Shown piece after piece: positions 2,782-14,452 of a DNA stretch of 64,000 nucleotides. The position numbers were made by a program, and so were the translations under genes. The notes beneath the pieces were generated by a model that was not told the DNA's origin, ran no database searches, and saw nothing but the letters and a program-made list of their open reading frames with translations. Every line of letters begins with the position of its first letter. Positions within the stretch are counted from its first letter, which is position 1. This DNA is from a virus. The stretch spans positions 105,198-169,197 of the IMG/VR virus record IMGVR_UViG_3300027974_000020. One strand, written 5' to 3'.

Positions 2782-2852
2782 AAGAAGGCTCTTCCATGGT
2801 AGTGCATGGGAGAGCTTTCTTTTTTATGGCTAGGTATAAGACATCTAGCTAT
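2782..2852 (+). promoter_or_regulatory. terminator + CTAG element, copy 1
   Basis: GCTCTTCCATG/CATGGGAGAGC hairpin, T-tract, then ATGGCTAGGT-ATAAGAC-ATCTAGCTAT. Confidence 0.75.
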
Positions 2853-2905
2853 GTCTCATCAGATCGACATTAACTGTCTGTGACCCCAGCGTAGGTAGTG
2901 GCTGG
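2853..2905 (+). ncRNA. candidate pseudoknot leader RNA, copy A
   Basis: GTC..GAC stem; loop CAGAT pairs with downstream GTCTG; then TGACC and a hairpin. Homologous to copies at 7953, 8746 and 9460. Confidence 0.6.
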
Positions 2906-2967
2906 ACAACACACTGCTATGGAGACACGCGTGCCATATATAACAGCGTGTAATAAGGAGGTAGCTT

Positions 2968-3252
2968 ATCGCTGCTATAACACAAGGTAAGACAGTTACA
3001 TTCAAGCAAGTTGATGATATCATCAATTCTGCCGCTAAGGAATACCGGGTTTACCACTACAATGGTGGACAGGTCTTCATCCGTTTAAGCGCGTTGGATA
3101 ATATGATGATGGTTATCGACCATTCAACAGTAGACATTACAGTTGAGTTGTTTGACGGAACTGCATACTTGGCTGCATATGCCAATAACAACACTGAATA
3201 CAGCAACCGTTTTATTGCTGCGCCATCACAATTGGCTGTGTTGTTTGCTTAA
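2968..3252 (+). CDS. 94-aa hypothetical protein with putative ATC start (absent from ORF track)
   Basis: TAAGGAGG SD, 6 nt, then ATC. The frame (IAAITQGKTV...LAVLFA) is open to TAA at 3250-3252, just before the next terminator. Confidence 0.7.
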   Translation: MAAITQGKTVTFKQVDDIINSAAKEYRVYHYNGGQVFIRLSALDNMMMVIDHSTVDITVELFDGTAYLAAYANNNTEYSNRFIAAPSQLAVLFA

Positions 3253-3260
3253 GTAAGTAA

Positions 3261-3331
3261 TAAAGAAAGATACCCTGGGGTCTTCGGACCCTGGGGTTCT
3301 TTTTTTATGACTAGGACAAAGGTCTTATGTC
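3261..3331 (+). promoter_or_regulatory. terminator + CTAG element, copy 2
   Basis: cTTCGg-loop hairpin, T-tract, then GACTAGGAC-AAAG-GTCTTATGTC. Confidence 0.8.
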
Positions 3332-3356
3332 AATACTCTCTAGGAGGGGAGTAGAT

Positions 3357-3626
3357 ATGAATATGAAAGACAAACTAATAATGGCAATAATTGCAGTATT
3401 ATCAGTGCTTGCAATTGTTAGCTTTGTAGATGCAAGTAACAACCCAGTATCCTGCCAAGTTGACAGTTTGGTAGCGACATATGGAGATACCTATTGGACA
3501 TTGAGCAGTGATGCTGGTTGTGTTGGTGGGTATGATAAGCAAAGTAGGGTTGGGCAGATAATTGATCTTAATGGAGGTTCTGCGGATCTCCGTCATGGTC
3601 AATTGGTAATATTCCCAACTAAGTAA
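3357..3626 (+). CDS. membrane-anchored LysM-domain protein (YneA/ChiZ-like architecture)
   Basis: N-terminal TM or signal peptide, then a GDTYWTLS...IIDLN...LRHGQLVIFP LysM pattern; AGGAGGGG SD. Confidence 0.75.
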   Translation: MNMKDKLIMAIIAVLSVLAIVSFVDASNNPVSCQVDSLVATYGDTYWTLSSDAGCVGGYDKQSRVGQIIDLNGGSADLRHGQLVIFPTK

Positions 3627-3644
3627 ATTAAGTAAGTAAACCCA

Positions 3645-3718
3645 AAAAGAATTCCCCGAGCTGGTACCCTCTGCCAGCTTGGGGTTTTCTTTTTATGACT
3701 AGAGCTCAGGCTTTAGTC
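3645..3718 (+). promoter_or_regulatory. terminator + CTAG element, copy 3
   Basis: CCCCGAGCTGG/CCAGCTTGGGG hairpin, T-tract, then GACTAGAGC-TCAG-GCTTTAGTC. Confidence 0.8.
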
Positions 3719-3830
3719 GGGCTATAAGCGTTACGCCCTGAAAGTAATGCACCGGTCGTTGGCTACCGTAAAGCTAACACCTGTTGCGCAATTTGGGACT
3801 TTCTCTCCCAAAAAAACAGGAGGAATACTA

Positions 3831-4154
3831 ATGATTACAATGATCATTATCGCAACACTCATGGTTGTGGCTGCAGTTGCAGTTACAGTCTGCGTGATGC
3901 AGCAAAAGGCAATCGTTCTGATCAATCAGATCAAGAACCTCATCGTTCAATTGAGCGAAGAGAAAGCAAAAGCAGCCAAGGTTCTTTCCGAAAAGGAACA
4001 AGAACTGAGGGAAGCCAAGGATACAGCACGCCGTCATTTAAATGATTGGAATGCTCTCTACTTGGAGAAAAGGGCAGCTGAAGCCAAAAAGGCAGAAGCA
4101 GCAAAGAAGACAGAAGCGAAAGCTACTGTAAAGAAGACCAAAACAACCAAATAA
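3831..4154 (+). CDS. membrane-anchored coiled-coil protein with Lys/Ala-rich tail
   Basis: AGGAGG SD before ATG 3831; N-terminal TM followed by a charged helical region. Confidence 0.75.
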   Translation: MITMIIIATLMVVAAVAVTVCVMQQKAIVLINQIKNLIVQLSEEKAKAAKVLSEKEQELREAKDTARRHLNDWNALYLEKRAAEAKKAEAAKKTEAKATVKKTKTTK

Positions 4155-4188
4155 GACAAATTAGGGAAAGTCCTAATTGCGCAACAAC

Positions 4189-4250
4189 AAAAGATGCCCT
4201 GGGGGTTAACACCCCTGGGGTTTTCTTTTTATACCTAGAACATAGGTCCT
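4189..4250 (+). promoter_or_regulatory. terminator + CTAG element, copy 4
   Basis: Hairpin, T-tract, then ATACCTAG-AACATA-GG. Confidence 0.7.
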
Positions 4251-4279
4251 TATAATAAGTGAAGGGAGGTGAAATAGAA

Positions 4280-4453
4280 ATGGAAAACGCTAGGAATGGC
4301 ATATTCCCACATAAGTGTGGATGGCCATCCTGTGAGTTTGTAGTGGAATTGGACGATGAGCCCAATTGCTTTACTCATTCACCAGACAGCGGCAGTTCCG
4401 AGGTCGGCTACTCTGCAAGGAGAGATGCTGAACGCGGAATCGTACGGTTCTGA
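4280..4453 (+). CDS. small Cys/His (putative zinc-binding) protein
   Basis: GGAGGT SD before ATG 4280; C-x4-C...C-x2-H. Confidence 0.65.
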   Translation: MENARNGIFPHKCGWPSCEFVVELDDEPNCFTHSPDSGSSEVGYSARRDAERGIVRF

Positions 4454-4520
4454 TGGGATGGCAGCCAACTGACTAAGAGTCGGGGCAGATGAATAGTGCC
4501 TGGCAACAGAAACTATCATG

Positions 4521-4588
4521 AAAGAATAATCTCAGGGGTTAGCATCCCTGAGATTTTCTTTTTATGACTAGGGAAAAGGTCTCTAGTC
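4521..4588 (+). promoter_or_regulatory. terminator + CTAG element, copy 5
   Basis: AATCTCAGGG/CCCTGAGATT hairpin, T-tract, then GACTAGGGA-AAAGG-TCTCTAGTC. Confidence 0.8.
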
Positions 4589-4682
4589 TGGTTAGCAGAC
4601 CATAATCTGTTTAGCCGTAGCTGTACATACGGTGCCAGCGTGATGGGCGCATCCCATCTTTATGATTTCTTAAGGAGGAATC

Positions 4683-4973
4683 ATGTTCGGCATCATATTG
4701 CTACAAAACTGGTTGACTTTTGCGATATTCGCAATTTTGATATCAGTCTCGGTAATGATCATTATCGAGGAAACAAAAGGTAAAGGTATCATTAACACTA
4801 TCCTATACACTTTAGGATTTGTGTCACTGTTGTCTTTATGGCCTGTATTTAATATCTATACAGCCATACCTATCACAAACGATAATAATTTATTATTTAT
4901 AATAGCTTTATTTACAACATATTTTGCTCTGGTATTTGCTGGAACAGAGTTGATGGATAAAGCTACAAAATAA
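4683..4973 (+). CDS. hypothetical membrane protein (3 TM)
   Basis: TAAGGAGG SD; hydrophobic segments. Confidence 0.75.
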   Translation: MFGIILLQNWLTFAIFAILISVSVMIIIEETKGKGIINTILYTLGFVSLLSLWPVFNIYTAIPITNDNNLLFIIALFTTYFALVFAGTELMDKATK

Positions 4974-5025
4974 TAAAAAACTAGAATACTTTAGTTGTAC
5001 AGAGCTAAAGTTTTCTTACCAAACT

Positions 5026-5090
5026 AAGAAGTCCTTGGGGTTAGCATCCCAGGGATTTCTTTTTTATGCCTAGTGGATAGGTCACTAGGT
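5026..5090 (+). promoter_or_regulatory. terminator + CTAG element, copy 6
   Basis: Hairpin with GTTAGCA loop (as in copy 5), T-tract, then CCTAGTGG-ATAGG-TCACTAGG. Confidence 0.8.
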
Positions 5091-5139
5091 AGGCAATCTT
5101 ATTATGCCTACAAATAATAAGAGGAAGGGGAGCCTCATC

Positions 5140-5325
5140 GTGTCTGACACCTTGAAGCGCTTTCCTACCCTGACCTTACAATGCGCAGACACAATCTGCT
5201 TCATTTGTAAGACAGAAACCAAAGTCAATGGGGATACCAACCCCTATGACCTTGGTTTTGCCAGGGTAGGTGGCAACTCCGCCAACGGGTACGAGATCTA
5301 TCACATCTCGTGCTGCAACGGCTGA
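5140..5325 (+). CDS. small putative zinc-binding protein
   Basis: AAGGGGAG SD before GTG 5140; CFIC...HISC. Confidence 0.6.
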   Translation: MSDTLKRFPTLTLQCADTICFICKTETKVNGDTNPYDLGFARVGGNSANGYEIYHISCCNG

Positions 5326-5385
5326 GTTAGCCTAATACTGGCCACCTGTGCCTGTCTCATAACTGGGGGACATTAAACTACTCAG

Positions 5386-5455
5386 TGAGAGGGTAGCCCA
5401 AAGCATTAGCTAGGGCTACCCTCTTTTTATATGACTAGGAGAAAGGCTTCTGGTT
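5386..5455 (+). promoter_or_regulatory. terminator + CTAG element, copy 7
   Basis: GAGAGGGTAGCCC/GGGCTACCCTCT hairpin, T-tract, then GACTAGGAG-AAAGG-CTTCTGGTT. Confidence 0.8.
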
Positions 5456-5483
5456 AAACCAAACATACAACAAAGGAGAAACC

Positions 5484-5753
5484 ATGCGTACATCACCACG
5501 CTGTGTTGGTATAGTAAAACCAACAAGTAGGCGAGTGTTAAAGAAGGGGTTGGAGAGGTATCCTCAGATAAAGGGGGATGTAACTCAACAACGGTGCTTA
5601 AAAAGTATCAACTGCCCACACCACAGGGTTGCTAATGCTAGAATTATGGAGCTTCCATTAGAAGAACCATATGTAGAGCTAACAAGAGAGCAAATAAGGC
5701 AATTGATTAACATCGGTTACATGGCTGAAACAGGCCGTCCATACTACTTATAG
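5484..5753 (+). CDS. hypothetical basic protein
   Basis: AAGGAG SD; 89-aa ORF. Confidence 0.65.
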   Translation: MRTSPRCVGIVKPTSRRVLKKGLERYPQIKGDVTQQRCLKSINCPHHRVANARIMELPLEEPYVELTREQIRQLINIGYMAETGRPYYL

Positions 5754-5777
5754 ACCATAGGTCAAAGGAGAATAACA

Positions 5778-6905
5778 ATGAAATCATTAAAGCGTTTATT
5801 AATAATCTCTACTGTTGCAATTTCTTTTATTGGGGTCAATGAAAGTTCTGCTTCAGCTAGAAATAACAAATGTGTAAAAGTTGGCACATTTAAAACGGCA
5901 GTAAAAGTTAAGTACGAATGCAAGAGATTGACCACAGGTCTCAGATGGGTAAAGGTACAAACAAAAGTTGTACCAACAACACCTGCTGAAGTTATAATAC
6001 CAATACCAACTGATTGGTCAAATATTGAAAAGTATGCACAAAACATACCATACGCAGCATGGAAGGCAAGTGTTGGCGCGATCACCACTGGTATGCCTCA
6101 GATGCCAACAGTGAATATCATTAATGGACCAAATGCCCTTATAGCTTATTCAACTCCGGAAGTTAAGATTAATTTAACATCACGTTTATTTTCATCTGCA
6201 AAGCAACTTTCGCAGGTAAATATTATGCGTTTTGGGTATGATGATATTGGATGGGCTAATTCAAAGTGGTTAGAGCAATTTAATGGCCAAGATAATTCTG
6301 TTCCAAGAGAAATATTCGATACGTGTAAAACTACCACGACATGTTGGGGTGGCATTTCGCGCAATACCAAAAGTGGAATAGCTTGGTTTGCTTTGGCAAC
6401 AATGAAAGATAATCTATCTGAACCTAAACTTGTAAACGGGACTAACTACGCGCACTCATATGCTCATGCAATCCAATACGCAGCACTGTCTGAAATACCA
6501 GCACAAAGACTGCCAAGATGGTTGCTTGAAGGAGTTGCTACTTATTCACAAGCTGCTGTTGAAGGCATGGTAAGTTTTGATTTATACAAGTCTGAACGCA
6601 CAAGAGAAACAGGAGGATTAAATAACTCTCTTGAATGGCTTGAATCATTTCTTGCCCCAACAGGCAATGATTGGTCTCATTGGAACAAATATACTGGTAA
6701 TGATTCTTGGAGAGTTTATGATGTTGGTTTTATGGCAACCGAAGCGTTAGTAGCCCTCAGAGGACCAAACACTGTAATGAGTTTGTATACAAAAGTAGGA
6801 AGTGGTCAAACTTTTGATCAAGCGTTTAATGAGCTATATGGAATCTCTTGGGCTGAAGCTCACAAGATAATTGCTCGTGTAATTTCCTTACAAATTAACA
6901 AATAA
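5778..6905 (+). CDS. secreted gluzincin-like protein, catalytic Glu apparently lost
   Basis: Signal peptide; HSYAH in place of HExxH, followed by PRWLLEGVA and a YDVG motif. Confidence 0.6.
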   Translation: MKSLKRLLIISTVAISFIGVNESSASARNNKCVKVGTFKTAVKVKYECKRLTTGLRWVKVQTKVVPTTPAEVIIPIPTDWSNIEKYAQNIPYAAWKASVGAITTGMPQMPTVNIINGPNALIAYSTPEVKINLTSRLFSSAKQLSQVNIMRFGYDDIGWANSKWLEQFNGQDNSVPREIFDTCKTTTTCWGGISRNTKSGIAWFALATMKDNLSEPKLVNGTNYAHSYAHAIQYAALSEIPAQRLPRWLLEGVATYSQAAVEGMVSFDLYKSERTRETGGLNNSLEWLESFLAPTGNDWSHWNKYTGNDSWRVYDVGFMATEALVALRGPNTVMSLYTKVGSGQTFDQAFNELYGISWAEAHKIIARVISLQINK

Positions 6906-6912
6906 TCTTATT

Positions 6913-6973
6913 AAAGAATAGAGGGTCCTTCGGGGCCCTTTTTTCTTTATGACTAGTGGATAGGCCACTAGTC
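6913..6973 (+). promoter_or_regulatory. terminator + CTAG element, copy 8
   Basis: GGGTCC-TTCG-GGGCCC hairpin, T-tract, then a perfect 9-bp stem GACTAGTGG-ATAGG-CCACTAGTC. Confidence 0.85.
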
Positions 6974-6993
6974 TTTAGTTAAGGAGAAGAGTA

Positions 6994-7320
6994 ATGAAAG
7001 AAATGGAATGGTGTGGATGCATGGATGTGCGTTCATGGAAAGATGGCTTTGCTGATATTTTTAGCAGAGAGTTAGTAGAAGGTAAAAGAAAAGGTGAGTT
7101 GTATGAATTGTTTGAAGTTAAAAGCTTTGAAGAATTTAAGGATGAGTTAAGTGATATTGCATGGGGTGTAGGACGTATTGTTGGTGGTTTGGTTGGTAAG
7201 CCATATGTACGGATTATTGGTGATGCAATACATTACAATAAGGTTGTTTCTCGTATGAATGAATATGGTTGTATGAGGAGCAAGCGATTTCTTATTAAGG
7301 GTGAATGTCCTAATAAGTGA
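6994..7320 (+). CDS. hypothetical protein
   Basis: TAAGGAG SD. EELSD-like DELSDI motif is reminiscent of MazG-like helical proteins (weak). Confidence 0.65.
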   Translation: MKEMEWCGCMDVRSWKDGFADIFSRELVEGKRKGELYELFEVKSFEEFKDELSDIAWGVGRIVGGLVGKPYVRIIGDAIHYNKVVSRMNEYGCMRSKRFLIKGECPNK

Positions 7321-7350
7321 TTTAAGTTAATTAGTAAATAATTGACGGGG

Positions 7351-7413
7351 TATGCCCCTAGGGTCGTTTGATCCTAGGGGTATATTTTTTATGCCTAGTG
7401 GAATGGCCGCAGG
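7351..7413 (+). promoter_or_regulatory. terminator + CTAG element, copy 9
   Basis: CCCCTAGGGTC/GATCCTAGGGG hairpin, T-tract, then GCCTAG-TGGAAT-GG. Confidence 0.75.
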
Positions 7414-7436
7414 TTATAGATTATAGGAGAAGAGAA

Positions 7437-7868
7437 ATGAAAGAGAAAGCAATTATAGTTGATATTGATGGTACTTTGTTTGAAGAGGTGCCAGGTTGGA
7501 CAATGGAGACTGATGCATGGTGGGTGGAAGAAACACTTAAGATGCGTGAGTTGAAAGTTGGAATTGGATTAATTAAAGTATTTAAGGAAATGGGATTTAA
7601 GTTGGTTTTCTTGACAGCAAGAGGACAAAGCTGCAAGAAGAATACTTTGATTAAGTTTAAGGAAGCTGGTATTGATAACTTGGTAGATTCGATGTGGCAC
7701 AGGCCAGTTAAGTGGAATGGCGTGGCACCAGTTGAATATAAGAAGTTCATGATGCAACGGATTATGAAAAAGTATGATGTTGTGTTTGCTATGGATGATA
7801 GCGACAAGAACTTGGAAATGTTTAAGGGATTGGGTATCAAGGTATTTGATGCAAAGAGGTGGTGGTGA
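7437..7868 (+). CDS. HAD-family phosphatase (PNK 3'-phosphatase-like)
   Basis: DIDGT motif I, LTAR motif II, K, and MDDS motif IV; AGGAG SD. Confidence 0.8.
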   Translation: MKEKAIIVDIDGTLFEEVPGWTMETDAWWVEETLKMRELKVGIGLIKVFKEMGFKLVFLTARGQSCKKNTLIKFKEAGIDNLVDSMWHRPVKWNGVAPVEYKKFMMQRIMKKYDVVFAMDDSDKNLEMFKGLGIKVFDAKRWW

Positions 7869-7890
7869 GGTTATTGATAAACCTCAGACC

Positions 7891-7951
7891 AAAGAAACTA
7901 GGGTCCTTCGAGGCCCTTTTTTCTTTATGACTAGGACACAAGTCTTAAGTC
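7891..7951 (+). promoter_or_regulatory. terminator + CTAG element, copy 10
   Basis: GGGTCCTTCGAGGCCC hairpin, T-tract, then GACTAGGAC-ACAA-GTCTTAAGTC. Confidence 0.8.
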
Positions 7952-7952
7952 T

Positions 7953-8001
7953 GTCTATTGGTAGACATAAACTTCATGACCCCACTATTGGTAGTAGGTG
8001 G
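7953..8001 (+). ncRNA. candidate pseudoknot leader RNA, copy B (shorter)
   Basis: GTCTA-TTGG-TAGAC, ATAAAC, TTCATGACCCC, then a hairpin. Confidence 0.5.
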
Positions 8002-8054
8002 CAAATCATACTACCAGGGCACAGCCTTCACTGTGACTAATAAAGGAGAATAAA

Positions 8055-8735
8055 TTGGAAATGAACGAAGAGCCCAAAGCAATGCCAAAGTGGTTGGGTA
8101 AATTCCCAGCCTACATCAAACAATTGTGGTTGGATTCAAACAAAATTGAACCCACACCACCAGTGGAACCATCACTGCCAGCAGAAGGCGAATTTCGTTT
8201 TCTGTTGATTCCACAAAATGACACAAGCAACTCCGAGGCGGTACCGATGTTGGTGCTCATCCAGAAAGTACTTCAAGATGGGTACTTCCAGGTAATGCTT
8301 ACTCATTGTGAAGATGCAATGCAAACATACTCTGATCTTTACGTCACTAGTGGCGAAACAGGTTTGGGGTATGGTGTTTTCATTAGCACCGCAATACAAA
8401 ATCAAGCTAACGTGAATTGCTTGAGCGAAACTGCAGTTGGTAAGTTGATTCCTTCAATGGTACGAGCTAGGGGTACATACAATTTTGGACCTAATGATGA
8501 GTGGCGCAGAGGACGTCGCTTTTCTTCAGATCGATTTGTTGCACAACTAGATCCACGTTGGAAGTTCGTTAATGAACAACTTACTGCAATGCAATACCTA
8601 CTGGGCGCATATGAAGATGAAGGCGATACTCGTGACTCTGAATTGAGCGCAAAACACCAAGCAGAAGACATGAAATCGTTTTACCAAGTTGACCGTGACA
8701 ATGGTGAACTTCTTCCATCGCAGAAAAACAACTAA
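8055..8735 (+). CDS. hypothetical protein
   Basis: AAGGAG SD; 226-aa ORF with a TTG start, or ATG at 8061. Confidence 0.7.
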   Translation: MEMNEEPKAMPKWLGKFPAYIKQLWLDSNKIEPTPPVEPSLPAEGEFRFLLIPQNDTSNSEAVPMLVLIQKVLQDGYFQVMLTHCEDAMQTYSDLYVTSGETGLGYGVFISTAIQNQANVNCLSETAVGKLIPSMVRARGTYNFGPNDEWRRGRRFSSDRFVAQLDPRWKFVNEQLTAMQYLLGAYEDEGDTRDSELSAKHQAEDMKSFYQVDRDNGELLPSQKNN

Positions 8736-8745
8736 GTAAGTAATA

Positions 8746-8800
8746 GGTCTGATTGGATCGACCTTAACTGTCCATGAACCAACCGTTAACCAAGAGGTTG
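8746..8800 (+). ncRNA. candidate pseudoknot leader RNA, copy C
   Basis: GGTC-TGATTGGATC-GACC, TTAACT, GTCCA (pairs with loop TGGAT), TGAACC, then a CAACC/GGTTG hairpin. Confidence 0.6.
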
Positions 8801-8843
8801 TAATTCACATGGTTATTTAATCACAAACAAAAGGAGAAGGATA

Positions 8844-9362
8844 ATGTCAGATAACAAAAACAAATTCCAGTCAAGGCTGGATGCAATCTCAAAGGTTGCA
8901 ATTGTTTTACATGCCTTTGGCACATGGTATGAACTACAAATTGAATCCAGTGACAAAAATCGGTTGACTGATGGGGCACTGAAGTATACACAGCATGTTA
9001 GCTTGTTCCCAAGCAGCAGAACATTGTATTCTTTTGTTGGTGTTTCAGAAGATGGTGCAATTGTCAATGGTTTCATGCATGATGGAACAAGCAACGACAA
9101 TGGTGGTTATGGCAGTGATTCGTTTGAATTGACGATGAAAGATGGATCACACAAAGTCATAACAGGACCATGGAGCTCAAGACCAGGAGTTCATACTGTT
9201 AACAGCGGTATTCAATACACTGAAGTTAGAGTTGGTTATGGTATGTATGGATTCTCAAGGGAATTCATTGAAGCCATAATTGATCGATTTAACCTCGATG
9301 TAAATCTTGACTCAGTAACTTTGGAAGACAAAGAAATTAATCTGAAAGTAACACCTAAGTAA
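8844..9362 (+). CDS. hypothetical phage protein
   Basis: AAGGAG SD; 172 aa with GYG...GPWSS motifs. Confidence 0.7.
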   Translation: MSDNKNKFQSRLDAISKVAIVLHAFGTWYELQIESSDKNRLTDGALKYTQHVSLFPSSRTLYSFVGVSEDGAIVNGFMHDGTSNDNGGYGSDSFELTMKDGSHKVITGPWSSRPGVHTVNSGIQYTEVRVGYGMYGFSREFIEAIIDRFNLDVNLDSVTLEDKEINLKVTPK

Positions 9363-9400
9363 GTAGCAGCGGTGAGCCTGGAGTTAGGTTTCAGGCTAAG

Positions 9401-9458
9401 GAAATTAGGGTCCTTCGGGGCCCTTTTTTCTTTATGACTAGGAATAAGGTTCCAAGTC
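9401..9458 (+). promoter_or_regulatory. terminator + CTAG element, copy 11
   Basis: GGGTCCTTCGGGGCCC hairpin, T-tract, then GACTAGGAA-TAAGG-TTCCAAGTC. Confidence 0.8.
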
Positions 9459-9459
9459 C

Positions 9460-9513
9460 GTCTGATTGGATCGACGTAAAATGTCCATGACCCCTGGTTA
9501 TTGGTTACCCAGG
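9460..9513 (+). ncRNA. candidate pseudoknot leader RNA, copy D
   Basis: GTC-TGATTGGATC-GAC, GTAAAAT, GTCCA, TGACCC, then a CCTGG/CCAGG hairpin. Confidence 0.6.
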
Positions 9514-9576
9514 ACAACTACGTAACCAGAGAGACACTATCTCTCTATAATAAAAAGTGTAATAAGGAGGAATGTT

Positions 9577-9966
9577 ATCAAAGAGCAAATCAACAAAATC
9601 AACCAGGTCACTGATGGTGACAAGGTCAAGTGCGAGCCGTGCTTTGGCACAGGTAAGTACATGAGCAAAACCGTCATCGATGGAACATGTTTCCGTTGCA
9701 AAGGCACTGGTTCAGAAAAAGCAATGTCAATCAAGCAATACAATTTCATCAAGGAATTGTTCATGGCATTGGTGAAAATGAACATCATTGTGAAAGAGAA
9801 CAATGAATGGCATGAAATGGTTAACACCATGAACCAACACAAGGATGGAATTACATTGCGGTCATCCAAGTGGGCATCAGACAAGATTGAGGAATACAAG
9901 GCTCGCAAGAACCGTGTCCTCAAACCTAAGAGGCCAGTGTATTCAGTTACCCACTGTGGAATTTGA
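9577..9966 (+). CDS. DnaJ-type CxxCxGxG zinc-finger protein with putative ATC start
   Basis: TAAGGAGG SD, 6 nt, then ATC in frame with ORF 9661. The extension supplies the first CEPCFGTG, which pairs with CFRCKGTG. Confidence 0.7.
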   Translation: MKEQINKINQVTDGDKVKCEPCFGTGKYMSKTVIDGTCFRCKGTGSEKAMSIKQYNFIKELFMALVKMNIIVKENNEWHEMVNTMNQHKDGITLRSSKWASDKIEEYKARKNRVLKPKRPVYSVTHCGI

Positions 9967-10070
9967 GCAGTGGGATGAACCACAGTGGGTAACTGAAGAA
10001 TGGAAAGCTGGAGAAGATGCAGAGGCTGACATATACTAGCACCGCCAGGTGTATAGGTAGTCATCAAGTC

Positions 10071-10131
10071 AAAGAAGAGGGGGTCCTTCGGGGCCCTCTT
10101 TTCTTTTATGCCTAGGACACAGGTCTCAGGC
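10071..10131 (+). promoter_or_regulatory. terminator + CTAG element, copy 12
   Basis: GGGTCCTTCGGGGCCC hairpin, T-tract, then GCCTAGGAC-ACAG-GTCTCAGGC. Confidence 0.8.
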
Positions 10132-10157
10132 TAACACTCTCTAGGAGGGGAGTAATC

Positions 10158-11609
10158 ATGAAGAATAAACCAACAACAAACAAGGAGGAAACGGTGTATA
10201 AAGACACTGTCTACGCAAAACTGAGAAGGGCACTTTACAATGTCATTCTCGAAGGTAAATTCATGCAAGAAACTCAATGGGACGAGAATGGACGATGCCA
10301 CATGGTTCAGACATTTGGTGACCGTGGAATTATTGCAACAATGCAACGAAAAGCAAATAACAAAGGATGGGTTGTATTCTTTACTTTGTGCATGTACAAG
10401 CACGAGCAAAATCACATTCCATTCATGCGTGATTTGAAAGTTAGATTGACTATCAATGAAACTCCATCTGGAGTAAGATTATTGTGGTTTGTTAATGGTA
10501 AGCCACAATGGATGGTAGAAAGTAGTCAAATGGCTTTCTCAAATAAATTCCATCATACTGGACATATAGTTCAAGAAGTTATTAATCAGATCAAGAGTAT
10601 ATATTCTCCTGAAGATTTTATACCGATCTTGAAGTACATGCAAAATCCAACATGCAAAGAGTATACTTTGTATGGCCTTAACCAAAGGTGGATGAAAAAG
10701 TTATCAGGTGGAACAAACCCTAGGCAAATCTTGAATAAAATCTATGGCAAAGATGGGCAGGATGGGTTGAGCAGAAATGCTTTTGGTTCAAATATTGGCA
10801 AAAAGAGTTTTGCTACATTTGCTATAGCAGCTGAGCTAGTGCGATATTTGAAATCATTTCCTACATCATTCTTTGATAAAATCATTCTTGATGACTTTGC
10901 AGTACAAGATATTGCATACTTGGGGATGATGTATCAAGATGTAACTTACATCCAATATTTCATTAAGTACTTTAATCACAGTAAAATCCAACAAGATTTT
11001 ATTAATGCGATTAATAACTTTGAAATGTATCCACATTCTGATTATGACATTTCAGATGCTACAGAACGTTTCTTTAGGATGAGCATTTGGCAGGAAGCAC
11101 GTGATACCGGCAGGATGTTCAAGGAAATAAAGAACAGAGCTGTTCGGAGAAACATCATTGCACTTAAAGGCACGGTTCAAGAAACCCATGACCTTGTCAC
11201 TATCGAGAATGCAAAGCTAGCTCGAGAAGATAAGCAAATCAAATACAGTGATAAGAGCCTTATCCTGGATGGTCAACAGATAACAGATAATATTATTTCT
11301 GTTCTTCCGAAGACAACGTTTGATTTAATATTATGGGGTTCACAACAGCACAACTGCATAGGTAGCTATGGAGATCGTGTTGCTCGTGGCACAGGTGCGA
11401 TTGTTGTTGGATTCAAAGATGTGACAACAGATACTTGGGTCGGCCATGCTGAACTCAATAACTATTTCAACAGCTTTGGAAGTTCTTGGACAATCATGCA
11501 GTTGAGGGGCAAATATAACTCAAACCTTGATGAGTCAGATGAAACTACTATTCGTTTGTTTCTGGACAACATACTCAATGCTTGGAATGAAGAGTTAGTA
11601 TTGCCATAA
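10158..11609 (+). CDS. PcfJ-domain protein
   Basis: C-terminal HD...LPKT..DL..WG..QHNCIGSY...QLRGKYN pattern typical of PcfJ-like domains. Confidence 0.75.
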   Translation: MKNKPTTNKEETVYKDTVYAKLRRALYNVILEGKFMQETQWDENGRCHMVQTFGDRGIIATMQRKANNKGWVVFFTLCMYKHEQNHIPFMRDLKVRLTINETPSGVRLLWFVNGKPQWMVESSQMAFSNKFHHTGHIVQEVINQIKSIYSPEDFIPILKYMQNPTCKEYTLYGLNQRWMKKLSGGTNPRQILNKIYGKDGQDGLSRNAFGSNIGKKSFATFAIAAELVRYLKSFPTSFFDKIILDDFAVQDIAYLGMMYQDVTYIQYFIKYFNHSKIQQDFINAINNFEMYPHSDYDISDATERFFRMSIWQEARDTGRMFKEIKNRAVRRNIIALKGTVQETHDLVTIENAKLAREDKQIKYSDKSLILDGQQITDNIISVLPKTTFDLILWGSQQHNCIGSYGDRVARGTGAIVVGFKDVTTDTWVGHAELNNYFNSFGSSWTIMQLRGKYNSNLDESDETTIRLFLDNILNAWNEELVLP

Positions 11610-11628
11610 AGTTTTACCTCAGGTAAAT

Positions 11629-11703
11629 AAGAGAGAAGGGTCCTTCGGGACTCTTTTCTTTTATGCCTAGTTCACAGGTCTCAGATCACTGAGGTCGCTA
11701 GGC
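11629..11703 (+). promoter_or_regulatory. terminator + CTAG element, copy 13 (upstream of RNA polymerase gene)
   Basis: cTTCGg hairpin, T-tract, then GCCTAG-TTCACA-GG. The partner CTAGGC is at 11698-11703, beyond an inserted hairpin. Confidence 0.8.
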
Positions 11704-11739
11704 AAGTAATACAAACCAATAAACCCTTAAGGAGGGAAT

Positions 11740-14331
11740 ATGGAAGACCAACCGGTCAAACCGCCCGATGCAGCGGCCAATGCATCAACAAAGGAGAAGA
11801 AGATGCCAAAAGGTATCATCACTTTCCTGAAGGGGCGCTTTCGCGTTCTGACAAATAATCCAACTCCGAAAGAGGAGCAGGCATACAATTTGTCTCAGGA
11901 AACCAATAAGCCAGTCCCGTTTGGACGGATCAAGACTGTTACTGGATACAATTATGTCCAGGACGTCTACGCTGTTCAGACTGGTGACTTCACCTACTCC
12001 TTGTTGGAGAACAAACTTACTAAGCGGGGAATTAAGTTCCGTTTAGGAGTCGTCTCTAACAAGGATCTATCAGAGCTCGTAATCAAACACGAACTGTTCA
12101 GTCTTAATGACATGATCAGTAAGTGCAGGTTCGCATGGGCTAACGCATCATACACCTTCTTCCTGGAGGTTCAAGACAGTAAAGAAGCATCAAGCTTTGA
12201 TCTGTCTGATCTTGGGTTGGAGGTCTATGACTTCAAGAAGACCAGCAAACGTTTGCAGGAAGTGACTCGTATCACTCAAATGCATTCGTCTGGTCCGATT
12301 GGCAAACTTGATTATCGCATGTTGGAAGATCTTCCTGGTGAAGAACTTGCATATGATGGTCCAGTATTTGTCAGCGACTCATTTGCAGTGCGTTCTTGCT
12401 TTAGTATGACTGATGGTCCTGCTAAGAACAAGCACATTGCAATGATCAATCGCGGTAAGATCGGTCCAATGATTGGTCGTATTCTGATGGATCAAGGTGA
12501 AGTTAAGGGCCTTGTCCACGTTGTTCCACGACAACAGCTAGGTGCGGATGTGGTTTTCCACAAATCTGCTCTGAAGCGAGAGTTAAAGACTGACGATGGA
12601 CGTTGGCACTATACTGCCTTCAAACACAAGAACCTCCACACTGCTATGTGGGATATGCAAACTATGTTCAATAACCATACCTGGTTAATGACCAAAGAGC
12701 AATTCACACTGGACATGGAGTCTGTTATCACTGACTTTAACAAGTCTGTTGAGAATGGACAGCTTCCTGACTGGATTATCCACCAGGAAACTGACGGGCA
12801 CAAGGATGACTCAGCTCCACAAGTAGAGCATGTGACATCTGGCTGGAAGAAGAGTTACATCCGCTGGCAACAAGCTGGTTTGGATGTAACTGCATCTAGC
12901 AACCTCGTCTACATGGCTTTCGGATCATTGCTGAACCAAATGCGTTCTGCTTTGAAACGAAACACGTGGTGGGTTCCCATCTCTAATGCCTTTACGGCGA
13001 CAGTAACCACCTTCGATGCTTTGGAGGTCATGGGTAACTTTGAGCTGCCTCAGCACAAACGAGACATGGTGTTCTTTGATGAACGCTTTGGCTGTATTGT
13101 GCCGACTAAGCGGTTCATTGAGACTGCTGACCTTCATGACACGTGGGATCAGGACGGTGACCAAGCTAAGTTCATCCGCATTAAACTGTGGAGTTCTTCG
13201 CTTGTTATGAGCCTTGATGGATACAACCATCCGGAACTCAGGGAAACATATGTCATTCCTGCTGATTTGGTAGTGCCAAGCACTCCTGAAGAGGCAATTG
13301 ATATGTGTGTCGTTATCCGTTCACCAAACGGTCCTGGCGGTTACTCTATCGAACGGTTTGATGCTGAAACGATGCCATGGCTTCGTGTAGCGGAAGATCG
13401 TGTACAGGTAATTGATCTGGCCAAAGCACCAGCTGCAATGAGCACTTTGCTCGTTACAACTGAATGCGGTCAGATTAATAGCTCCACTACCTACAGCAAG
13501 GAATTGTTCAACCGGGATCATGCTCTTAATATGATCTTGGCACAGATGAATAACCCTGGTGTTGGTAGGTACGCTAATCTCATTATGGTTTGGGCTGCAA
13601 CATTTGGTCCAAGCTATCCTGATAAGTTGCCTGCAATTGGTAACGATGTCATTGACTGTGTTCAACAGACCGCAGACCTTGGTTCATTTGTTCAATTGCA
13701 AAGTGACTACTCAGAAATGGCTGAAAGCATTGCTCAGGCGATCATTGACAGCGGTTGTGGTATTGACCGTTATGTTCTTGAGACCCGGTTCCCTGCACTC
13801 AGCGATGAGACACGCCAAATGCTGGTAGATATTGCAGTAGACGGTCAGTTTACTGAGATGTACAACGCATACAATCAAACTATTACAAAGGTGCAAAATA
13901 TCGCATCCAAGGGTAGCTTTGATCTGCGTTTGACATCTGACACTCGTAACAAAGTGTACAATGCAATTCCAGCTATGAGGGAGTCAACCTCTGTTTGGTG
14001 CCGTGGCATCTGGTCAAAGTATGAACGTGAACTCTCAAGGGTTGACGGTAAGTACTCTGAACTGTCCAAGAATACCAATCGCTTTGTAAAGATGTCTGCT
14101 GTTGCACAACGCACAGAAGAAATCTCTACCATCATTGGTGCACTGTTGGATGAAGTCAAGGCAACATCACATCCTGAGCTCTATGCTCTTGCTATCTACC
14201 GTTGGATCATTGATCCGGAACTGACTCGCAGTAAGTATGGCGTGTCTGACCGTATCATCTTCCAGAACGGAATAGACGGACAAGAGACCATCATGGATCT
14301 CATTATCACAGCAATCAAGGACCTGAAGTAA
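11740..14331 (+). CDS. single-subunit two-barrel RNA polymerase (YonO / RNAi-RdRP-like), paralog 1
   Basis: DGPVFVS, GRILMDQGEVKGLV..SALK (DPBB-A lysines), DQDGD (13147-13161), IRSP, GVGRYAN and IDC motifs. Confidence 0.8.
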   Translation: MEDQPVKPPDAAANASTKEKKMPKGIITFLKGRFRVLTNNPTPKEEQAYNLSQETNKPVPFGRIKTVTGYNYVQDVYAVQTGDFTYSLLENKLTKRGIKFRLGVVSNKDLSELVIKHELFSLNDMISKCRFAWANASYTFFLEVQDSKEASSFDLSDLGLEVYDFKKTSKRLQEVTRITQMHSSGPIGKLDYRMLEDLPGEELAYDGPVFVSDSFAVRSCFSMTDGPAKNKHIAMINRGKIGPMIGRILMDQGEVKGLVHVVPRQQLGADVVFHKSALKRELKTDDGRWHYTAFKHKNLHTAMWDMQTMFNNHTWLMTKEQFTLDMESVITDFNKSVENGQLPDWIIHQETDGHKDDSAPQVEHVTSGWKKSYIRWQQAGLDVTASSNLVYMAFGSLLNQMRSALKRNTWWVPISNAFTATVTTFDALEVMGNFELPQHKRDMVFFDERFGCIVPTKRFIETADLHDTWDQDGDQAKFIRIKLWSSSLVMSLDGYNHPELRETYVIPADLVVPSTPEEAIDMCVVIRSPNGPGGYSIERFDAETMPWLRVAEDRVQVIDLAKAPAAMSTLLVTTECGQINSSTTYSKELFNRDHALNMILAQMNNPGVGRYANLIMVWAATFGPSYPDKLPAIGNDVIDCVQQTADLGSFVQLQSDYSEMAESIAQAIIDSGCGIDRYVLETRFPALSDETRQMLVDIAVDGQFTEMYNAYNQTITKVQNIASKGSFDLRLTSDTRNKVYNAIPAMRESTSVWCRGIWSKYERELSRVDGKYSELSKNTNRFVKMSAVAQRTEEISTIIGALLDEVKATSHPELYALAIYRWIIDPELTRSKYGVSDRIIFQNGIDGQETIMDLIITAIKDLK

Positions 14332-14349
14332 TAGGTTCTTCCGAGTAAA

Positions 14350-14452
14350 GAGAGAGAGCCCCTGGGGAAACCTAGGGGTTCTTTCTTTATTCCTAGATCC
14401 TAGGTCTTTAGTTATTATATTAATATTTTTTTTTCCTAGATCTTAGGACCCT
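14350..14452 (+). promoter_or_regulatory. terminator followed by two variant CTAG-N6-GG elements (copies 14 and 15)
   Basis: GCCCCTGGG-GAAA-CCTAGGGGTT hairpin, then TTCCTAG-ATCCTA-GG and TTCCTAG-ATCTTA-GG. Confidence 0.65.

Follow-up and report, generated by a model that had tools for sequence, protein, structure and literature searches.

We analysed a window of DNA from an uncultured lake phage (the whole stretch of 64,000 nucleotides (nt), positions 105,198 to 169,197 of IMG/VR record IMGVR_UViG_3300027974_000020), in which two genes lie behind two copies of one structured leader RNA and open at ATC. Judging from comparison of sequences, ATC is very probably the true start of both open reading frames (ORFs), ORF1 (2968-3252, + strand) and ORF2 (9577-9966, + strand). 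We think it likely that both ATC codons are genuine starts within an initiation module conserved in a clade of large freshwater phages, and that the weak start has been selected. The near-absence of AUG after this leader suggests that protein synthesis is subject to a built-in brake or switch.

A first-pass annotation of the window had drawn attention to an identical 14-nt Shine-Dalgarno (SD) block followed by N4-TT-ATC at two sites, each downstream of a pseudoknot motif. The block, GTGTAATAAGGAGG, is found exactly at 2948-2961 and 9557-9570, with no further copy in the window or the rest of the 169-kb record. With the N4-TT-ATC that follows, the motif spans 2948-2970 and 9557-9579, which places the two ATC codons at 2968-2970 and 9577-9579, at a distance of 6 nt from GGAGG in both genes. 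The identity is exact, but the block is not simply an SD and not a free-standing repeat: it is the 3′ end of a structured leader of ~115 nt, present in two homologous copies. Within the block, GTGT forms the 3′ strand of an H-type pseudoknot, and TAAGGAGG(T/G) provides an SD of 8-10 nt, presumably complementary to the 16S rRNA 3′ end of the host, which we take to be canonical. A covariance model of the leader gives the upstream copy 128 bits and the downstream copy 131 bits, so the repetition of the block reflects homology, not chance.

Scanning IMG/VR for the block returned mostly chance matches, and the whole upstream leader was common to five loci. Further scans, of IMG/VR with the leader's 5′ module and of JGI metagenomes with a pattern specific to this type of leader, type A, brought the collection to 37 leaders, 31 of them distinct. 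Helices were assessed on an alignment of the leaders (A2) by pair counts, shuffles and slid controls, and the covariance model was built from the same alignment; all leader statistics are affected by shared descent. The leader consists of a hairpin P0 with an 11-nt conserved loop, helix P1, helix P2 with the loop GAGACAC, the pseudoknot, the SD, a spacer and the start codon, in this order. GUGU just downstream of P2 pairs with the GAGACAC loop, forming the H-type pseudoknot, and 5-7 nt then lead to the SD (UAAGGAGGU/G, 8-10 nt). The spacer of 6-7 nt ends in U, and the start is AUC, AUU or UUG. Copy 1 (2853-2967, +) contains P0 at 2860-2864/2876-2880, P1 at 2886-2890/2901-2905, P2 at 2918-2922/2934-2938, a pseudoknot between ACACGC 2925-2930 and GCGUGU 2946-2951, and the SD UAAGGAGGU at 2954-2962. 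The corresponding elements of copy 2 (9460-9576, +) are P0 at 9467-9471/9483-9487, P1 at 9493-9497/9509-9513, P2 at 9528-9533/9541-9546, a pseudoknot between ACACU 9534-9538 and AGUGU 9556-9560, and the SD UAAGGAGG at 9563-9570.

These helices covary, in agreement with the pseudoknot motif noticed upstream of both ATC codons. P0 contains two perfectly covarying pairs (CG in 17 and UA in 14 leaders, and GC in 20 and AU in 11), P1 has four covarying arm pairs (CCUGG/CCAGG, CCAGC/GCUGG, CUUGG/CCAAG and CAUGC/GCAUG), and P2 has two pairs with changes on both sides. The core of the pseudoknot is formed by the invariant ACAC of the P2 loop with GUGU of the block, and its extension covaries (ACACGC/GCGUGU, ACACU/AGUGU and ACACUAU/AUAGUGU). 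For leaders with a downstream GUGUGU, the scripted count registered only the 4-bp core; in our reading of these sequences, the pairing would be the 6-bp ACACAC/GUGUGU. The pseudoknot columns (88-93/115-120) are 94.6% paired, with both-side changes in two pairs. Over P0, P2 and the pseudoknot together, 95.9% of cells are paired, as compared with 81.7% in shuffles and 23-56% in slid controls, and 77 cells carry double changes as compared with 27.9 in shuffles. In Rfam 15, no family reached its gathering score, and nothing overlaps 2853-2967 or 9460-9576 even at E-values up to 10.

We note some further features of the leader. In every type-A leader, the 3′ side of P0 has an ATG or GTG (9483-9524 in the window; columns 33-35 of A2), which opens variable short frames of 4-12 codons without an SD. 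An upstream ORF at this conserved (A/G)UG was considered; the codon is best explained by P0 pairing, and a leader peptide is the less probable reading. A hammerhead-like core was rejected, as it is broken by variants. A scan for sigma-70 promoters found no match inside the leaders.

The region around the start codon is also structured. Among 23 distinct start regions, ~18 have a spacer that pairs with codons 2-4 and so forms a hairpin, P3, with a stem of 5-8 bp and the start codon in the loop. Examples are GGUAGC[UUAUC]GCUGCU, UGUUGC[UAUC]GCAACA, UUGCU[AUUUC]AGCAA, GUAGA[UUAUU]UCUAC and GGCC[UUACUU]GGCU. The design is built from at least four unrelated stem sequences, and some stems reach into the SD. 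For ORF1, P3 lies at 2960-2976 (+; GGUAGC [UUAUC] GCUGCU, -7.3 kcal/mol), predicted by folding and recurring in relatives. Folded from -13 to +20, the start regions have a median of -7.3 kcal/mol, compared with -1.0 in 53 SD-bearing ATG genes of the same phage (p = 6e-8). The pairing of the P3 stem accounts for the first codons shared by unrelated ORFs (GCU ACU, GCU GCU and GCA ACA). The base preceding the start is U in 23 of 24 AUY starts, as opposed to 15 of 53 controls. A fourth pair between U(-1) and A37 of the initiator tRNA is documented in E. coli (PMC10018350), and with such a pair, only the third codon position would stay mismatched on AUY.

The choice of start codon indicates that a weak start is maintained. 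When the 31 distinct type-A leaders are compared, the codon that follows GGAGG at 6-7 nt (5 nt in the single ATG case) is ATC in 16, ATT in 8, TTG in 6 and ATG in only 1, and this census of homologues favors the suggestion of the first-pass annotation that weak initiation is deliberate. Most type-A leaders have an in-frame stop codon 1-4 codons upstream (TAG right after the SD or TAA inside it); the frame opens so late that no other near-cognate codon is available in most of them. Leaders that share only the 5′ module have ATG in eight cases and TTG in one (Fisher's exact test against type A, p = 1e-6, not corrected for kinship). In a tree built only from leader columns, both deep clades contain ATC as well as ATT, and the tree requires eight or more start-codon changes. 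The weak codon has therefore been retained as the leaders diverged and as leaders and ORFs recombined. Such recombination is seen at contig joints. In three other samples, a leader of the copy 2 type stands ahead of ORF1 with the junction exactly at the 14-nt block (2948 / 9556), as in leaders L047 and L124, and in two samples (X4 and X16; joint 6979 / 9563) the SD of ORF2 directly follows the short leader of the 6946 cassette, which has no pseudoknot. Given these joints, leaders and ORFs recombine at the SD block, and the 14-nt block appears to be a recombination junction as well as a part of the initiation site.

These observations could also be read differently. The leader may make AUY initiation efficient, in which case the non-AUG codon would be a neutral hitch-hiker of a mobile leader cassette and no brake would exist. 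The pseudoknot, an SD of 9-10 nt and U(-1) would then fully offset the mismatch, and extended SDs are known to aid recognition of weak starts (PMC13009471). The recombination at the block fits this explanation, as does the fact that the first 2-4 codons are common to unrelated ORFs behind the leader (IATY..., IAA...) and seem to move with it. However, ATG is a single change from ATC and yet occurs once in 31 leaders, while changes between ATC and ATT recur and TTG is found at the same site. The start region is unusually structured, which lowers initiation, and in Staphylococcus aureus AUU and AUA starts, all of which are paired with extended SDs, still reach only ~10% of AUG (PMC13009471). We therefore consider a fully efficient start rather improbable, and prefer a weak start kept by selection.

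Evidence also comes from the position at which coding begins. ORF1, a single-domain member of the largest ORF family found behind these leaders, has 94 codons, and an in-frame TAG (2962-2964) lies two codons upstream of its ATC. The first canonical start in this frame is TTG 3094, 42 codons downstream, and the only candidates before it are CTT, ATC and ATA (2977). The conserved core of the protein, KQVDDIINSAAKEYRVYHYNGG, is encoded upstream of TTG 3094. The cassette, bounded by terminators at 2782-2821 and 3272-3297, contains no other credible ORF, consistent with the earlier description of a 94-codon ORF in an otherwise empty cassette. Termination-reinitiation at the TAG before ORF1 was rejected, as there is no upstream ORF. 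ORF2 has 129 codons, and the 28 codons from ATC 9577 to ATG 9661 include no ATG, GTG or TTG. This extension encodes the first of the two CxxCxGxG zinc knuckles, CEPCFGTG (the second is CFRCKGTG), as had been proposed for the ORF at 9661. With its two motifs, ORF2 scores 18.8 bits against the DnaJ-type zinc finger PF00684, below the cut-off of 32.7. In the relatives of ORF2 (L113, L121 and the database homologue P0006), the leader is the same and the start position is occupied by an Ile codon. The gene call of P0006 begins at a spurious ATG further upstream, and its translation runs straight through the leader, so that ...WRHACH..CVIRRWLIATENN represents P2, the pseudoknot and the SD, followed by the Ile codon, with the first zinc knuckle kept. 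ATG 9572 was rejected as a start: it lies 1 nt after the SD, opens a frame of only 30 codons and is not conserved.

Sequence clustering divides the ORFs that follow the leaders into six families. Family 1 comprises 24 proteins, of which ORF1 of the window has one domain and most others have two (about 190 amino acids). There are 7 members in family 2 and 3 in family 3, the zinc-finger family that includes ORF2, and all 3 of the latter start at ATC. The remaining three families are singletons, one of them the lone ATG case. In the ATC members of family 1, the core (RVISAA.EGRYY.GNG) precedes the first canonical start, and N-terminal insertions and deletions are in frame. L121 (ATC, IATLTNNAHVLSD) and L101 (TTG, LATYTTNKHVLSD) are orthologous from the first codon, at the same aligned position. 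In public gene calls, TTG members are full length (MATYTTNK...), and one ATC member is cut to VLSD.... Pfam and PHROGs searches with representatives of the six families assigned no function. Neither tblastn of both ORFs against INPHARED phages nor megablast of the region gave a match, and protein-pattern scans of IMG/VR with either ORF found no relatives; only the leader DNA patterns found them. The ESM Atlas held no usable match for the ORFs, and the AlphaFold model of ORF1, made from the family alignment, is unusable (pLDDT 42.7).

Gene callers pick TTG 3094 and ATG 9661, and a weak AGGU lies ~8 nt before ATG 9661, so translation might start at these internal canonical codons and leave the upstream stretch as an untranslated leader. 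We consider this very unlikely. The family 1 core and the first zinc knuckle lie upstream of these codons, where insertions and deletions preserve the frame; orthologues that carry TTG in place of ATC are full length; TTG 3094 has no SD; and L113 and L121 have no Met at the position of 9661.

The repetition of the block had been taken as an argument against sequencing error, and the contigs bear this out. Eleven studies from 2016 to 2025 have the stretch in their freshwater, lake or river metagenomes. In contigs from three other studies that span both sites, no listed difference affects either ATC. Dozens of independent contigs, sampled in different lakes and in different years, have ATC or ATT at the homologous codon, and the ORFs are open and conserved. 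The breadth of these independent contigs excludes, for practical purposes, a sequencing or assembly error, or decaying pseudogenes that have lost their ATG. The one feature that speaks for damage is at the other end of ORF2, where the window copy has 10 nt (ACCCACTGTG, 9949-9958) that are absent from contigs of three other studies and from the homologues P0003/P0004. The extra nucleotides shift the frame and replace the conserved C-terminus (...VEFEQWDEPQWVTEEW...ADIY) with THCGI*, which may represent a real truncated variant or an assembly error.

Dicistrovirus intergenic internal ribosome entry sites start without initiator tRNA and decode from the next codon. A comparable mechanism, with the leader mimicking the P-site tRNA-codon duplex, would agree with a pseudoknot adjoining the start and with GCU or GCA as codon 2 in 21 of 31 leaders, but it is barely credible here: no leader loop was found to covary with AUC, AUU or UUG, the P3 stem explains the conservation of GCU and GCA, and the canonical SD spacing points to ordinary 30S initiation.

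Several points weigh against a selected weak start in a conserved initiation module. The leader counts are not independent, given the homology of the leaders, and leader and start codon could move together as a single mobile unit. One type-A leader (L123) does have ATG, 5 nt after GGAGG. Copy 2 of the window, ahead of ORF2, has no P3, so this hairpin is not obligatory, and if ATC is kept in the X4 and X16 contigs, the start would not strictly need the pseudoknot either. Single-sequence folds of the whole leader have unremarkable z-scores (0.35 to -1.7), although such folds cannot model a pseudoknot. Support for the two ATC codons was checked on assembled contigs. Finally, the complementarity of the SD and the efficiency of the start codons are judged by extrapolation from E. 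coli and S. aureus.

If the weak start is selected, initiation would be led by the SD in the ordinary way. The long helix between the SD and the anti-SD would hold the 30S subunit, and the initiator fMet-tRNA would read AUY with a third-position mismatch, with U(-1):A37 as a supporting fourth pair. On such a weak codon the basal yield would be low, P3 may damp it further, and the long SD and U(-1) may offset this in part. In E. coli, AUA, AUC and AUU yield 1-2% of AUG (bioRxiv 10.1101/063800). A long-lived SD-anti-SD helix on a weak, structured start is what would be expected for a regulated standby site, and the yield may depend on conditions, either on the level of IF3 or on a factor that opens or binds the leader. 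IF3 would be the natural candidate discriminator, as for infC (PMC7797042); a protein binding the P0 loop or the pseudoknot would be equally possible. A search of the 169-kb record (about 80% complete) gave no homologues of IF3 (IF3_C), bS21 or IF1. Neither an initiator-type tRNA nor a tRNA-Ile(GAU) is among the seven tRNAs of the phage. The phage tRNA-Met(CAU) (34056-34129) was considered as an initiator and rejected, as its paired G1:C72 and A31:U39 indicate an elongator or Ile2 type.

A bolder and distinctly tentative proposal, which we regard as possible though not likely, is that the type-A leader represents a new class of cis-regulatory RNA built around non-AUG initiation, timing several early proteins at once. 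The pseudoknot would then dock beside the SD-anti-SD helix or stack on it, and P3 would present AUC or AUU. The gate might be a phage or host factor, the availability of IF3 during takeover, or a ligand.

The covariance model finds four relatives in this phage, the two ATC leaders and two more distant ones. A type-B leader (8742-8858, +; 47 bits) shares the 5′ module with P0, has neither the GAGACAC loop nor the pseudoknot, and leads to an ATG start at 8844. A diverged copy lies at 7948-8069 (+; 22.6 bits, E about 1e-3) and is followed by AAAGGAG, 6 nt and TTG 8055 GAA ATG 8061. Judging from the spacing, TTG 8055 is likely to be the start, which would be another weak start in the leader family.

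Both ATC genes lie in an array of cassettes on the + strand. The ORF1 cassette follows the intrinsic terminator at 2782-2821, which belongs to the preceding cassette and has a T-run after it; a promoter-like motif or second hairpin at 2823-2852 (TTTATGGCTAGG...CTAG) opens the cassette, and the terminator at 3272-3297 closes it. The ORF2 cassette is preceded by a terminator at 9407-9424 and then by the promoter-like motif at 9431. All terminators were assigned by a terminator scan. The motif that follows each terminator, TTTATGACTAG...CTAGTC, takes the form of an inverted repeat or hairpin, as in GACTAGTGG-ATAG-CCACTAGTC at 6950-6972. All of its 13 + strand copies lie within 2823-14386, and the array ends at the phage RNA polymerase gene. 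Some relatives, among them L049 and L051, have GGGGTATACCCC before the leader instead of the motif. In cassette 5063 (5104-5325 in the window), the SD GGAAGGGGAG is followed by CCTC ATC GTG, and the start of this cassette is likely to be GTG 5140 (or ATC 5137) and not ATG 5104, the choice of the longest-ORF rule. Short contigs of a lake metatranscriptome (X20) match 4939-5337 and 9055-9213, away from both ATC starts; such matches are no proof of transcription, as RNA libraries can contain DNA.

What was already known is that AUU and AUA starts occur with extended SDs in bacteria; what is new is a modular, recombining leader coupled to them. In this leader, a pseudoknot, an extended SD and a start hairpin go almost invariably with AUC, AUU or UUG, across several ORF families. 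Also new are AUC as the commonest choice and a covariation-supported RNA motif without an Rfam match. To our knowledge, AUC is among the rarest documented bacterial starts, and in E. coli just two non-canonical starts are confirmed, both of them AUU. Genes of this kind are shortened or overlooked by standard gene callers, and phage annotations systematically lose them. The module also offers a natural system of ~140 nt for studying the joint effect of SD strength, the fourth pair, local structure and IF3 on start choice.

In the T4 gene 32 leader and in E. coli rpsO (encoding S15), an H-type pseudoknot lies beside the ribosome-binding site and is operated by a protein, and the starts are AUG. 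The phage leader resembles these in that a hairpin loop pairs downstream, near the ribosome-binding site, with support from covariation. It differs in that the pseudoknot ends 5-7 nt before the SD and leaves the SD outside, and no sequence or Rfam relationship to them was found. With AUH starts of the infC, pcnB and cvfC1 type, the two genes share conserved coding sequence upstream of the first canonical start, an SD spacing within 5-9 nt with no alternative start in the open frame, and a non-canonical codon conserved in homologues. S. aureus cvfC1 (AUU), ccpN (AUA) and infC (AUA) likewise combine AUH with an extended SD at fixed spacing (PMC13009471). Those are cellular genes, with one gene per context and no described pseudoknot or start hairpin, whereas the module described here belongs to a phage. 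E. coli infC, which encodes IF3, and pcnB likewise have a near-cognate AUH start behind an SD, with the codon conserved (bioRxiv 10.1101/063800), and the weak codon of infC is the basis of IF3 autoregulation (bioRxiv 10.1101/063800; PMC7797042). Compared with infC and pcnB, the phage module mostly uses AUC, which is outside the confirmed E. coli cases, serves several unrelated ORFs, and has a pseudoknot and a hairpin that presents the start codon.

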